DNA of 64,000 nt from a virus (taxonomy: Duplodnaviria > Caudoviricetes). Location: IMG/VR virus record IMGVR_UViG_3300011242_000003, positions 1-64,000 of that record; one strand, 5' to 3'. This document shows, one piece after another, positions 59,231 through 64,000 of this stretch. Each line of letters opens with the position of its first letter. Positions within the stretch are counted from its first letter, which is position 1. The position numbers and the translations under genes are program-made. Below the pieces are notes generated by a model, which saw nothing but the letters and a program-made list of their open reading frames with translations, did not search any database and was not told the origin of the DNA.

Positions 59231-60316
59231 ATGGAAAGACGTTTTGAAGTTCATAGTTTAGAGGATGAAGGTAGATTAAATAAAGAAGAATTAAGTAAAT
59301 TAGAAAATAGTTTCAAATCAGAAAGCATTTATATTGAAAATGAAGAATTTCTTAAATCTAAGGTTAAATACTTGTTTGATAACTACGACCATGAAAATAC
59401 GTTAGGTGTATATTGGAGAACATTTAAAAATTATATATTAACACCAGAGATTGACCTTGGTAAAAATATATATGAATTTACAAGCAATGAAGTAGAACAA
59501 ATGATGTTATCTATTCCTGCACCACGTAATGTAAAAAATACTATTTATAGATTAGCAAATTTATATATTGATTGGGCATTAAAAATAGAAAAACTAGCTA
59601 TGAGAACAAATCCGTTTGACCCATTTACGGCAGATGATTTATTAATAGTAAATAAAAAAGTTATTCAAAATGAATATATGAGTATGGATGATGTTTTCGA
59701 TATGGCTATTATTTCAGATAAAGAAGGAGTGCCATATCAGAAAATCATAGTATTTATACTAGGAAGATTGGGACTTTATGGCAAAGAAGGTTCATATTTA
59801 GCTGACCTAAGAAAAACTCATATAAATAGAGAAACTAACACTATATCAATAGTTGATGATATGACAGGTGAAATATTATCTCAAATTCCTGTTACAGATG
59901 AAAGAGTATATTATTGGTTAGAGTGTGCTGAGAATGAGACACAATACGATTATAGACCTTATATAACAGAAAATAATGTAGCAAGACGTGGAGCAGAGTT
60001 AGTATTCATAGAGTCTGATGGTAGAGTTTTAAAAAGCTATAATAAAAAATATGATAGAGTTCTCAAAGGTAATTTATATAATGCACTAAAAGAAATTTTT
60101 AGAATCAATGATAGAAAACTAATGGGATTTAAAAAACTTGTAAGATGTGCTAAGTTTGACCAATTAGATAAAAGGCTAAAAGACAACGGTAAATTGACCG
60201 TTACAGACGTTCAAGAAGTTCAGAGGATGTATGAGCCTACCTCAACCTATTCAAGCTATTACACGCTAAAACAGGACTATGAGAGTTATAACCCTAATAT
60301 TAAGATAGAGAAATAA
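59231..60316 (+). CDS. Catalytically degenerate tyrosine-recombinase-fold repressor resembling SPbeta YopR/MrpR (SroF)
   Basis: E..LGKNIYEFT..E and YIDWA...NPF motifs; GLYGKE replaces GxRxxE and there is no HxxR; paired with the YopQ-like gene. Confidence 0.65.
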   Translation: MERRFEVHSLEDEGRLNKEELSKLENSFKSESIYIENEEFLKSKVKYLFDNYDHENTLGVYWRTFKNYILTPEIDLGKNIYEFTSNEVEQMMLSIPAPRNVKNTIYRLANLYIDWALKIEKLAMRTNPFDPFTADDLLIVNKKVIQNEYMSMDDVFDMAIISDKEGVPYQKIIVFILGRLGLYGKEGSYLADLRKTHINRETNTISIVDDMTGEILSQIPVTDERVYYWLECAENETQYDYRPYITENNVARRGAELVFIESDGRVLKSYNKKYDRVLKGNLYNALKEIFRINDRKLMGFKKLVRCAKFDQLDKRLKDNGKLTVTDVQEVQRMYEPTSTYSSYYTLKQDYESYNPNIKIEK

Positions 60317-60362
60317 TCTCTATCTTTTTTATTTATTAAAAAAATATAAAATTAAGTGAATA

Positions 60363-60508
60363 AAAATATTAAATTGTGTTGACAATAGTAATAAGATACT
60401 ATATACTAATATTTGTGAGGCAGATATATCAAATATTCACAGTCAAACAAAATTAATTAAAATAAAATATTAAAAAGTATTGACTTAGCTGAATATATGG
60501 TATATACT
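60363..60508 (+). promoter_or_regulatory. Two tandem SigA promoters, each with an AAAATATTAAA box, upstream of the MazF-TPR-peptide operon
   Basis: TTGACA(60379)-17-TATACT and TTGACT(60480)-17-TATACT. Confidence 0.7.
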
Positions 60509-60546: not shown

Positions 60547-61224
60547 ATGGTAAGAATGGATTTAGAAGAATTAAAGAAGTTAAAAAGGGGTATGGAAGAA
60601 GAAAGAAATAAACTTAGGGTAATAAGAACAATTAGAAGAGGAGATATTTATTGGTGTGATTTGGGAGATGCAAAATCTAAAGATGATAATGGAATAAAAG
60701 AAGAAGGAGAACAGGCAGGTAAAAGACCTTGTTTAATAGTACAAAACGATATCGGAAATAAATATAGTCCTACAGTAATTGTTATACCAATAAGTTCGAA
60801 AATAGAAAAATGTAAACAACCAACACATACACTAATTACTAAAGAGGATTGCCAAAGTCTTTATAAAGATAGTTATTTGGTGGGAGAACAAATTAATACT
60901 ATAACTAAAAACAAATTAGGCGACTACATAGGTCACGTAATGAATGATAAAATAATTAAAGCAATGAAGATAAGTTTAGGTTTACAAAGGATTACTACTG
61001 AAAAAGAAGATGTTTTAATAAATAAAGTTAAACATTTAAAAGAGCTTGAAATAATGATTTCAATGATGTTAGATAAATCAAATAATATTATAACTGATTT
61101 TATTAAACAGTTTGTAGATGATAGACATAATTTACTACTTGATATTAAAGAATATTGTAATAGAAACAATATGAATTTACATTACTATTATAAAAAAGAA
61201 GAATACATTAAGATAGCAATATAA
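60547..61224 (+). CDS. MazF/PemK-family endoribonuclease with N- and C-terminal helical extensions
   Basis: RRGDIYWCDL...EQAGKRPCLIVQNDIGNKYSPTVIVIPISS...EQINTITK.KL..YIG; no MazE gene is adjacent. Confidence 0.88.
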   Translation: MVRMDLEELKKLKRGMEEERNKLRVIRTIRRGDIYWCDLGDAKSKDDNGIKEEGEQAGKRPCLIVQNDIGNKYSPTVIVIPISSKIEKCKQPTHTLITKEDCQSLYKDSYLVGEQINTITKNKLGDYIGHVMNDKIIKAMKISLGLQRITTEKEDVLINKVKHLKELEIMISMMLDKSNNIITDFIKQFVDDRHNLLLDIKEYCNRNNMNLHYYYKKEEYIKIAI

Positions 61225-61254: not shown

Positions 61255-61851
61255 ATGTTAAACATTGATAATGATAGAATAAGTGTATGCACTTGCTTTG
61301 GGGACGGTGAATATGAAAAAGGACGAAAGAAATTATTTGTAATGTATAATACAAAGCTAAAAAAAATAAATAATATTGAAGATATAAGATTTATAATTCA
61401 CAATCTTGCATGGGTTGAATATTATTTAAAAAATATAGAAAGTGCTAGAAAATATTCAACTCAAATAAAAAATATATTTGAAGAAAATGATGCTTATATT
61501 AAAAATTATCCTAGTGAATATTGTAAAATATTAGATTTATACAATATTTCGCATACAGGTATAATTTCTATGGATGAAAAAATAAATCTATATAAGGAAA
61601 CATATGCCATTTACTGTAAAACGGGTTCACCAGACAGATATATGGCACTACATAATATTTATGACTTAAAAAAAGAATATTACAAAATACCTAATCTTTT
61701 AAAGGAAATGCTTTCAAATATAGGAGAACATCAAAATTTTGTATCAGAGTTTTTAAAAGATTTAGAAGAAAATGACAAGCAATCTTACGAAGAATCCCTA
61801 TTAATAATAGAGGAGTTTAAATTGAGCAATGCTTCTATAACTAGTTTATAG
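61255..61851 (+). CDS. TPR-like all-helical protein, putative peptide receptor (no HTH)
   Basis: HNLAWVEYYLKNIESARKY TPR-like repeat and a second ALHNIY helix; lies directly upstream of the pre-peptide. Confidence 0.55.
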   Translation: MLNIDNDRISVCTCFGDGEYEKGRKKLFVMYNTKLKKINNIEDIRFIIHNLAWVEYYLKNIESARKYSTQIKNIFEENDAYIKNYPSEYCKILDLYNISHTGIISMDEKINLYKETYAIYCKTGSPDRYMALHNIYDLKKEYYKIPNLLKEMLSNIGEHQNFVSEFLKDLEENDKQSYEESLLIIEEFKLSNASITSL

Positions 61852-61888
61852 AAGATTGACTATAGATATACTAAAGGAGGAAATTAAC

Positions 61889-62077
61889 ATGAAAAAAACA
61901 ACAAAGAAAACAATTTTAATTTTAGGAGGTATGGCATTAGTATTATCATTAATCATTATGCCAATGGCAAAAGGTGAAGGACAAGGTAGTTGGGGTATGG
62001 AGGATTATAGACCATTTGGCACAGGAGAAGGTCAGGGAAGTTGGGGTATGGAATTGCCAACATATTTTAACCGTTAA
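61889..62077 (+). CDS. Secreted signalling pre-peptide, 62 aa, with two copies of GEGQGSWGME
   Basis: AAGGAGG RBS; basic n-region plus hydrophobic h-region; repeats at 61973-62002 and 62024-62053. Confidence 0.8.
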   Translation: MKKTTKKTILILGGMALVLSLIIMPMAKGEGQGSWGMEDYRPFGTGEGQGSWGMELPTYFNR

Positions 62078-62105: not shown

Positions 62106-62133
62106 AGAGTAGGAGTCAAAGCCTACTCTTTTT
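62106..62133 (+). terminator. Rho-independent terminator closing the MazF-TPR-peptide operon
   Basis: AGAGTAGG...CCTACTCT followed by a T tract. Confidence 0.7.
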
Positions 62134-62163
62134 AGAATAATATATTAAATGAGGAGAGGTTGA

Positions 62164-62769
62164 ATGGGAAGAATAAAAGATAATATAATTATTATATATG
62201 ATAATTATGCGGAGATGGTAGTAGAAAGCAAAGGAAACATATATAAAGCGTTAATAGACAAAGAAGACATAAAAAGAGTAGATAAATATAAGTGGTGGTT
62301 GTCATGCAATGGTTATTTAATGACGGATACATATGATGGTGACTATAAAAACAGATATACCATTCACAGATACATATTAAACGTTGATGATAGAGAGATT
62401 CTAGTAGACCATATTAATAGAAATAGATTAGATAATAGAAAATGCAACTTAAGAAAAACAACACCTACTGGAAATAGCATCAATAGGTCAGTACAGAGTA
62501 ATAATAAATCAGGAATAATAGGTGTATCATGGAGTAGAAAACTTAATAAATGGGAGGTTAGAATTAAACTTCATGGAAAGAAGAAATTTATAGGATACAC
62601 TAAAGATTTAGAAGAAGCAACAAGAATGAGATTACAAGCTGAACTAGATATATTTGGAGAAGAGTATGCACCACAAAGACATTTATTTGATAAATATAAT
62701 ATACATACAAGAAATTCAGAAAAATATGATTTAAAATACGAAGATGAATTTAATGAACAAATCAAGTAA
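62164..62769 (+). CDS. HNH homing endonuclease with AP2-like domain
   Basis: VDHINRNRLDNRKCNLR; NKSGIIGVSW...KW...IG....EEA...RL.AE. Confidence 0.88.
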   Translation: MGRIKDNIIIIYDNYAEMVVESKGNIYKALIDKEDIKRVDKYKWWLSCNGYLMTDTYDGDYKNRYTIHRYILNVDDREILVDHINRNRLDNRKCNLRKTTPTGNSINRSVQSNNKSGIIGVSWSRKLNKWEVRIKLHGKKKFIGYTKDLEEATRMRLQAELDIFGEEYAPQRHLFDKYNIHTRNSEKYDLKYEDEFNEQIK

Positions 62770-62862: not shown

Positions 62863-64000
62863 GTGATTAAAATAAAAATATCAAGAGTAGAAAGACATAA
62901 TATTTTAAGAGCAAATCCCTTGTGGAATGAATTAGATAGTCTATGTTTTAAATCCAAAAATCTATATAATTATGCTAATTATATAATGCGACAAAGCTTT
63001 ATAAATAAACAGGGTATTATTAAGTATGGTGATTTAACATATCAATTAAAACATAGTGAACCTTTTAAAGACTTAGGAAGTAATTCCTCACAACATGTTT
63101 TAAAAATGTTATGCAGAGATTGGAAATCGTTTATGGAATTGCTAAAGATGTATAATAAGAATCCAAATAGCTTATTAGGAAGACCTAAACTACCACATTA
63201 TAAAAATAAAAATGGTAGACATATATGTATCTTGACTAATTGGCAATCACAAATTAAAGATGGATATTTATTCTTTGCATTTAAACCTTTGAAGCCTTTT
63301 AATAATAAAATTAAAACTAAAACAAAAGGAAAACATATGCAAACTAGAATTATACCTAAAGGTGTTTGTTATATATTAGAGATAGTATATGAAATTGAAG
63401 TACCTGATATAAAAGAAGAATCTAAAAATATTTCTAGTATTGATTTAGGGATAAACAACTTTGTAACTTTATCAAATAATATTGGTGCAAAATCAATTAT
63501 TATTAATGGCAAGGGGATTAAATCTTATAATAAATACTGGAATAAGCAAGTTGCAAAATATAGAGCATTAGCAAAAATTAACAATGCTTTAGATTGGAGT
63601 AAAACTTTAGAAAGGTTATATAATCAAAGATACAATAAAATGGAATATTGGATGCATAAGATAAGTAAAGAAGTTATTAATTATTGCATAGCATTAAATA
63701 TTGATACTTTAGTTGTAGGATTGAATAAAGAGTGGAAACAAGAAAGTAAAATGAATAATATAGTAAATCAAACTTTTATTCAAATTCCATATGATAATTT
63801 AATTAATAAACTAAAGTACAAATGTGAAAATGTAGGGATTAAATTTATAATCACAGAAGAAAGTTATACGAGTGGTACATCATTTTTAGATAATGAATTA
63901 CCAATAAAAGAGAACTATAATAAATCAAGACGAGTTAAAAGAGGTTTATTTAAATCCAATAATGGTATGTTGATAAATGCTGATTTAAATGGCAGTTATC
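62863..64000 (+). mobile_element. tnpB: IS200/IS605-family TnpB gene (truncated by the window end; no tnpA seen)
   Basis: Not in the ORF track because it is open-ended. My translation gives SKNLYNYANY, RuvC-I SIDLGINN, IPY..LI.KL.YKCE, EESYTSGTSFLD, RVKRGLF and INADLNGS. Confidence 0.88.

Follow-up and report, generated by a model that had tools for sequence, protein, structure and literature searches.

Why would a temperate phage encode a small protein that carries the same ten residues twice? The question is raised by a gene in the window, that is, the whole stretch of 64,000 nucleotides that was analysed, which forms the first part of a 146.8-kb virus record with a completeness of 79% (CheckV). 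The gene encodes a 62-aa product (61889–62077, plus strand, stop codon included) and is recognised from the list of open reading frames, from its orthologues and from its substitution pattern. A ribosome-binding site, AAGGAGG, can be read from the sequence 8 nt 5' of the ATG at 61889 (61874–61880, plus strand). Copy 1 of the repeat, GEGQGSWGME, covers residues 29–38 (61973–62002, plus strand), and copy 2, with the same ten residues, covers residues 46–55 (62024–62053, plus strand). The first-pass annotation had described two copies of these ten residues that are separated by a DYRPFGT spacer and differ at five synonymous sites, and this description proved exact when the coordinates and the translation were rechecked. 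The five DNA differences lie at repeat positions 3, 9, 12, 15 and 30, all of them synonymous third positions. A synonymous change is possible in eight of the ten repeat codons, and five of these eight have changed. If five differences were placed at random among the 30 positions, all of them would fall at third positions with P = 0.0018.

Comparison of the two units indicates that the duplication comprised the entire 51-nt (17-aa) pro-region. The spacer DYRPFGT (62003–62023, plus strand) corresponds to the diverged second half of unit 1, and the C-terminal tail LPTYFNR (62054–62074, plus strand) to the diverged second half of unit 2. The first 30 nt of the two units are identical at 25 of 30 positions and the last 21 nt at 6 of 21. 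Because the unit is conserved in its first part and diverged after it, the whole pro-region appears to have been duplicated, with only the first part kept constant afterwards. Gene conversion was considered as a cause of the identity of the two copies and was ruled out because they have diverged at silent sites, in five of the eight silently variable codons.

A search of 5.8 billion proteins recovered two orthologues of the precursor, with 77% and 72% identity, and the orthologues are found on 19 metagenome contigs with the same gene order as in the window. GEGQGSWGM is unchanged in both copies of both orthologues, and the signal sequence, the spacer and the tail vary. Nei-Gojobori counts over the three pairs among the three orthologous genes gave a pN of 0.00 and a pS of 0.40–1.00 for both motif copies. 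In the same three pairs, pN was 0.10–0.42 for the spacer and 0.14–0.19 for the signal sequence. Judged from these substitutions, strong purifying selection acts on each copy of the nine-residue motif independently. The earlier proposal of purifying selection on the peptide is thereby borne out, since pN is 0.00 in each copy against a pS of 0.40–1.00 and the flanks are variable. Conservation of the repeat in homologues had been set beforehand as the point on which that proposal should fail if it was wrong, and both orthologues keep both copies. The limits of the motif have to be redrawn, however. Both copies in the window do read GEGQGSWGME, but one orthologue, in which the spacer is also two residues shorter, has N in place of E after copy 1, so that the strict core comprises nine residues, GEGQGSWGM, rather than a decapeptide. 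Because the motif changes among the orthologues at synonymous sites only, the open reading frame is translated in the predicted frame. Pfam, PHROG and NCBIfam contain no family for the 62-aa peptide.

The N-terminal part of the precursor resembles a Sec-type signal sequence (residues 1–29; 61889–61975, plus strand), as judged from hydropathy, from a charge count and from the alignment of relatives. The n-region has a net charge of +4, the h-region spans residues 9–23 and the c-region consists of small residues. The hydrophobic core is 15 residues long, with a mean Kyte-Doolittle value of 2.89, and is interrupted by GG and P. An uncleaved signal anchor was considered and is unlikely, the core comprising only about 15 residues with these GG and P breaks. 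By inspection, signal peptidase is predicted to cut at A-K-G|E after residue 29. An x-x-G|E site immediately precedes the motif both in the window and throughout the relatives of its clade, the predicted sites of the relatives being V-S-G|E, S-S-G|E, V-T-G|E and S-T-G|E. This conserved position just before the motif suggests that signal peptidase would place copy 1 at the new N-terminus. The first-pass annotation had regarded the mature peptide as internal. This holds in that the motif is not C-terminal, copy 2 ending seven residues before the C-terminus of the precursor, but copy 1 begins at the predicted signal-peptidase site.

The precursor gene is the last of a three-gene unit in which it follows a PemK/MazF-fold gene and a gene for a 198-aa protein that consists of TPR-like repeats only. 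Two sigma-70-like promoter matches, TTGACA-17-TATACT (60379–60407, plus strand) and TTGACT-17-TATACT (60480–60508, plus strand), were found by consensus scan and are pattern matches only. They are located 3' of the terminator of an MrpR-like gene (60302–60326) and 5' of the three-gene unit. The TPR gene ends 37 nt before the ATG of the peptide gene on the same strand. The end of the unit is marked by a terminator-like hairpin (62106–62134, plus strand) with an 8-bp stem, an 8-nt loop and a following UUUUU (RNA folding energy −12.4 kcal/mol, z = −2.4), which is absent from the list produced by the consensus terminator scan. Directly upstream of the unit are genes for a 488-aa protein (PHROG 5732) and for a 361-aa MrpR/YopR-type repressor with a recombinase fold (PF22822). 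The MrpR/YopR repressor of SPbeta-group phages has been described previously (PMC10516654), and by their family matches these upstream genes are a lysogeny block of the SPbeta type. The order of MrpR-like gene, PemK fusion gene, TPR gene and peptide gene is kept in every contig that is long enough to show it. Immediately 3' of the terminator of the peptide gene is a gene for an HNH endonuclease with an AP2-like domain (62164–62769), and downstream of this lies an IS605-type TnpB gene (62863–64000; OrfB_IS605 and Cas12f-like TNB domain). Relatives carry Bro-N/ANT, pRha or ORF6N antirepressor-type genes at this position instead. A blastn search with the three-gene unit against 50,697 phage records gave no match.

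The first gene of the unit (60547–61224, plus strand) encodes a 225-aa protein that matches PemK_toxin in Pfam with an E value of 7e-24 and PHROG 1936 and 35650, "MazF-like growth inhibitor". It matches 103 phage records, over the N-terminal domain only. The protein has an additional helical C-terminal extension of about 85 aa, which is kept in eight loci. This extension (residues 140–225) contains an invariant Cys and an invariant Tyr and a hydrophobic tail that ends in A plus one hydrophobic residue. The AF2 model of the protein (pLDDT 68) contains two long helices at residues 152–206 and a low-confidence tail, so the extension is modelled as a helical hairpin followed by that tail. The extension could be the part that is gripped by the TPR protein. 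A reading of the same model in terms of autoinhibition or docking was set aside, as a pLDDT of 68 is too weak for it. No MazE/AbrB-type antitoxin gene is found beside the PemK-fold gene, which is flanked by the MrpR-like gene and the TPR gene, so that the toxin is not paired here with a MazE-type antitoxin as in type II MazEF systems. TACAT is the cut site of the MazF proteins of Bacillus, Staphylococcus and C. difficile. It occurs 1.9 times per kb on the sense strands of the 173 open reading frames of the whole genome, a count that refers to the site of other MazF proteins, which may not be the cut site of the 225-aa protein itself. Avoidance of TACAT in the repressor genes was considered and rejected, the counts being 0 against 2.1 expected in the MrpR-like gene and 1 against 2.8 in the YopQ-like gene, neither of which is significant.

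The 198-aa protein (61255–61851, plus strand) is all-helical and, on the basis of AF2, Foldseek and VIA-align, is a candidate intracellular peptide receptor with a TPR fold. Its AF2 model, built with 33 homologues, has a pLDDT of 94.9 and contains eleven helices, arranged as five TPR-like pairs plus a cap, from residue 5 onwards. Structural alignment by VIA-align gave Z scores of 13.6–14.9 with the TPR domains of KLC1/2, including a complex with a tryptophan-acidic peptide, 13.3 with PlcR-PapR (rmsd 2.9 Å over 166 aligned residues), 12.1 with RapH and 11.5 with the phi105 Rap protein in complex with its peptide; RapH, RapI and the Rap proteins of phi3T and phi105 together range from 11.4 to 12.1. 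Such scores are generic for TPR superhelices and indicate the fold, not membership of a family. The model thus assigns to the 198-aa protein a TPR fold of the peptide-binding kind. Neither an HTH domain nor the three-helix bundle of Rap and NprR is present, the TPR helices beginning at residue 5. At the sequence level, no Pfam TPR family matches the protein at E ≤ 0.1, and no NCBIfam or PHROG family does so. A profile of the family gave no significant match to any sequence in the PDB. The TPR_12 HMM has no match over the whole phage record, and the 198-aa protein is the only member of its family there. Identity with Pfam DUF6707 was suggested only by a lead from protein-atlas features and was dropped, as no DUF6707 appears in the Pfam scan at E ≤ 0.1. 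A tblastn search with the protein against the 50,697 phage records, SPbeta group included, gave no match.

The family to which this protein belongs is rare. Its members were found in 6 of the 389 Clostridiaceae genomes searched. The TPR homologues are 196–208 aa long, and no fused or longer form of at least 402 aa was found, which is weak evidence. An alignment of the close family detected no loci in viral and genome contigs and only two already known loci in metagenome contigs; the search of viral contigs with P0016 gave no match. The wide TPR alignments contain no stretch that is conserved enough for a search for related loci. A scan of 1.8 billion representatives revealed about 30 proteins of about 200 aa with approximately 25–37% identity. 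A separate observation concerns a 466-aa HTH-TPR regulator from Clostridiaceae (L037, 658–2058), the C-terminal half of which matches the profile of the TPR-only family (hhalign 95.5%, E 1.5e-8). Given this match, the small TPR proteins resemble the sensing half of classical HTH-TPR regulators, and a regulator of this kind is a possible full-length ancestor type.

A comparison of relatives connects the precursor with the TPR protein. A TPR gene and a peptide gene are adjacent in all loci examined except L024 and L025. Five more TPR homologues with 60–65% identity occur in the same gene context, and each of their genes is followed by a Sec-type precursor of 44–48 aa in which a related motif occurs once (GEGKPGWGT, GEGKPSWGT, GEGQPSWGT, EDGKPGWGM or GDGLPEWGM). 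Among the distant homologues, six with about 26–37% identity have a readable flank (L021, L022, L023, L027, L028 and L034). In all six, a hydrophobic, leaderless open reading frame of 17–20 aa that had escaped gene calling, with its own Shine-Dalgarno sequence, begins at the TPR stop codon or shortly downstream of it (L023, 744–806; L027, 5584–5637; L028, 5584–5637; L034, 2073–2135; L022, 1960–2022; L021, 789–845). All six of these peptides end in WG, mostly as D/E-M/K-W-G, and by their sequences they look like an undescribed pheromone family of the SHP-like kind. Three of the six cassettes are paralogues in Clostridium cibarium Sa3CVN1. The distant WG cassettes have no MazF and are surrounded by chromosomal genes of unrelated kinds or carried by a mobilisable element, and the C. 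cibarium cassettes that lack a MazF neighbour indicate that the link with MazF is not universal.

Doubled motifs are also found outside the clade of the window. Two Clostridiaceae prophage loci that contain PemK fusion and TPR genes encode Sec-type precursors with repeats of other sequences. In L035 (1277–1438, minus strand), IDPPIA is present twice with identical DNA, the second copy being at the very C-terminus, and in L036 (2164–2331), ILNPW is present twice with one silent difference. In a maximum-likelihood tree of 17 TPR proteins, the window clade, which has Sec-type peptides of the form G-[ED]-G..WG, is supported at 97/99 and the clade with leaderless WG peptides at 93/92. The WGT peptides cluster inside the window clade (96/96), and L035 and L036 lie on long separate branches. 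The motif would thus have been doubled at least three times independently in one receptor family, as far as can be read from these sequences. A motif that is the sole conserved part of the precursor, that changes with the TPR lineage and that is doubled repeatedly is the signature of receptor-pheromone pairs. The signalling role put forward in the first-pass annotation gains support in this way, namely from the position of the gene after that of a TPR-fold protein, from a motif that follows the TPR phylogeny and from the two distant loci that have doubled other motifs.

The order of PemK fusion gene and TPR gene recurs at 30% TPR identity in L024/L025, L035 and L036. Neither the L024 nor the L025 contig contains a convincing peptide open reading frame, and these loci may represent a receptor without a signal of its own. 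A 503-aa TnpB-like gene (L024, 5743–7263) directly follows the TPR gene at the position where a peptide gene is expected. In one Clostridiaceae genome, a 332-aa protein (L038, 901–1899) contains PemK_toxin at residues 14–117 (E 7e-11) followed by TPR repeats, and its gene is followed by a 45-aa Sec-type open reading frame (L038, 1916–2053). The match of its TPR part to the family is weak (HMMER E 9e-6; hhalign 68% over 72 columns). This protein looks like a natural fusion of the first two genes of the unit in the window, which is suggestive but not proof of a functional connection.

The arrangement can be compared with several known signalling systems. Propeptides with several copies frequently accompany AimR, NprR, Rap and PlcR and have not been found with the leaderless peptides of Rgg and ComR (PMC9765709). 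Among phage Rap-Phr systems, the Phr of phi105 contains two identical pheromones and that of phi3T two different ones; in both cases specific extracellular proteases produce the two peptides, both of which are active, and propeptides with as many as eight copies have been reported (PMC11343458). The locus in the window resembles these systems in that a phage-encoded propeptide, predicted here to be exported by Sec, is located directly 3' of the gene for a TPR protein, and in that the precursor would contain two putative mature peptides, one internal and one nearer the C-terminus, with identical copies as in phi105. Like Rap, the candidate receptor would act on proteins and not on DNA. On the other hand, the 198-aa protein has neither the N-terminal three-helix bundle of Rap nor any sequence similarity to it, the motif has nine residues as opposed to five or six in Phr, the host lineage is clostridial and not Bacillus, and the likely target is a MazF-fold protein, whereas Rap targets Spo0F or ComA.

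The resemblance to arbitrium lies in a large temperate phage with a block of YopQ-like and MrpR/YopR-like repressor genes, in a predicted secreted-peptide gene that follows a TPR-type gene and in the presence of a MazF-type RNase. In phi3T, arbitrium ultimately frees the host MazF, which favours lysogeny (PMC10769878). In contrast to arbitrium, the locus described here has no AimR homologue and no HTH, its motif comprises nine residues instead of a C-terminal hexapeptide, and its MazF-fold gene belongs to the phage and shares a transcript with the sensor gene, whereas arbitrium reaches, through AimX, a MazF that is encoded by the host. An aimX-like element was not identified. The distant members of the family are reminiscent of Rgg/SHP and ComR/XIP in their hydrophobic open reading frames of 17–20 aa, which have a conserved C-terminus (WG) and no Sec signal. 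Duplications occur here only in the Sec-type precursors, which is the same split as that with the leaderless Rgg and ComR peptides (PMC9765709). The precursor in the window differs from the latter in being of the Sec type, and the receptors differ in having no HTH. Export by PptAB and processing by Eep may be suggested for the leaderless WG peptides by analogy with streptococcal systems only. The TPR domain of KLC (PDB 3zfw), one of the closest structural neighbours of the modelled 198-aa protein (Z 13.9 over 182 aligned residues), binds a short motif of W and acidic residues, and the phage peptides have W flanked by E or D; KLC is eukaryotic, and this is a structural analogy that implies no evolutionary link.

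The largest survey of RRNPP systems defines its receptors as proteins of 250–500 aa with a TPR HMM match and their propeptides as 10–100 aa long and of the Sec or SHP type (RRNPP_detector; PMC10075063). The precursor falls within this definition with its 62 aa (44–62 or 17–20 aa in relatives), its gene being adjacent to that of the TPR protein and its Sec signal being judged by inspection and a hydropathy count. It also has the layout of a multi-pheromone propeptide, with two putative mature peptides that are conserved among relatives, as do the precursors of L035 and L036. The candidate receptor has 198 aa (196–208 in relatives), fewer than any accepted RRNPP receptor, and no N-terminal effector domain, and it gives no Pfam TPR match at E ≤ 0.1, its AF2 model being a five-repeat TPR superhelix. 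Because it is too short for this definition, gives no TPR HMM match at that threshold and is without an effector domain, the 198-aa protein is not classed as a member of RRNPP, and it probably works like an RRNPP receptor.

On this evidence, the 62-aa product is probably an exported precursor, and duplication of its pro-region would give two copies of a signal for the adjacent TPR protein. The ancestral precursor would have consisted of a signal sequence and one pro-region of 17–18 aa. A tandem duplication of the whole pro-region would have come next, and under selection the first nine residues of each unit (GEGQGSWGM, with the core WG) would have stayed identical while the remainder drifted. 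Export by Sec and a signal-peptidase cut immediately before E30 would expose copy 1 as the N-terminus, and extracellular proteases would trim both units, so that each precursor would yield two identical peptides of about 7–9 residues. After re-import, the peptide would bind to the concave face of the TPR protein and alter its hold on a partner protein. The likeliest partner in this phage would be the co-transcribed MazF-fold RNase, which is encoded beside the MrpR/YopR-type repressor. Phage density would thereby feed into the lysis-lysogeny decision, with an effect that may go in either direction. The duplication would double the dose of signal per translation event, and it could add a protease-dependent step of maturation, by analogy with phage Rap-Phr.

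The precursor may have only one functional signal, the second copy being a redundant by-product of duplication or a step towards a new specificity; alternatively, the pro-region of about 33 residues may be active as a whole, with the repeat as a bivalent ligand of a TPR dimer. The relatives with a single copy evidently function with one motif, and the model in which duplication opens the way to diversification is accepted (cited in PMC11343458). However, both copies are invariant in three lineages although five of the eight codons that can change synonymously have diverged, and this invariance despite silent divergence points to long-term selection on each copy and not to a transient state. 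Furthermore, two other lineages independently retain two copies. Taken together, these points make a single signal rather unlikely. A somewhat smaller chance is given to a secreted or membrane effector, such as a factor for superinfection exclusion or a cell-surface factor, whose repeat binds outside the cell, the TPR protein being an antitoxin or chaperone of the MazF-fold protein. Small exported moron proteins are frequent in temperate phages, and because no MazE-type antitoxin gene lies beside the PemK-fold gene, the TPR protein could take the part of an antitoxin. Nevertheless, TPR and peptide genes are paired without MazF in the chromosomal cassettes, the leaderless peptides of 17–20 aa are too short for structural proteins, and conservation or repetition is confined in each lineage to a motif of 5–9 residues that differs between TPR clades.

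That the motif is the core of a modified peptide, either a pheromone with a modified tryptophan, as in ComX, or another RiPP, with two cores per precursor, is improbable. The invariant W followed by G is the one feature common to the window clade and the leaderless relatives, and multi-core precursors are known in some RiPP classes. Against this, no modification enzyme is conserved beside the cassette, where the neighbours are MazF-fold, HNH and Bro/ANT genes or unrelated chromosomal genes, and the repeats of L035 and L036 are without WG. Hardly any weight falls on the view that the open reading frame is not a real gene and that the repeat is a feature of the DNA. It is small and has no family annotation, but the two copies differ, and the motifs of the orthologues change, at synonymous sites only, and both the ribosome-binding site and the position of the gene are conserved.

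The reading as an exported precursor with two signal copies leads to a more specific proposal, which is put forward tentatively and is more doubtful than the pairing on which it builds. The doubled WG peptide may be bound by receptors of a new, minimal class, which have about 200 aa, consist of TPRs only and, in large clostridial phages of the SPbeta-like kind, would control a phage-borne MazF-fold RNase directly. The same family would run leaderless WG circuits in Clostridium chromosomes, and copy number would be a dose setting that has been selected recurrently. With the MazF-fold RNase being phage-borne and encoded next to the sensor, the logic that leads from arbitrium to MazF could run in fewer steps.

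To our knowledge, communication by peptides between phages is established experimentally almost only for Bacillus phages, through arbitrium and Rap-Phr. A doubled repeat is not new in itself, as propeptides with two identical pheromones have been published for Rap-Phr of phi105 and for the families of AimR, NprR and PlcR (PMC11343458, PMC9765709). The greater novelty would lie in the setting, a family of candidate TPR-only sensors that have WG peptides and are in some cases linked or fused to a MazF fold, and the full-text literature that was searched contains no description of peptide signalling with MazF and a TPR protein in phages or Clostridium. The analysis makes a sequence-level case that a jumbo temperate phage of the clostridial type encodes a predicted secreted peptide under strong selection, and it narrows the likely active part to 7–9 residues, which are open to direct synthesis. 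If the pairing of peptide and TPR protein is real, small peptide sensors have been missed systematically by the length and HMM limits of the largest RRNPP survey, and one branch of these sensors is joined to, or neighbours, an RNase toxin fold near the master repressor of the phage. If the reading as a minimal receptor is also true, this branch would be a one-step counterpart of the pathway from arbitrium to MazF.
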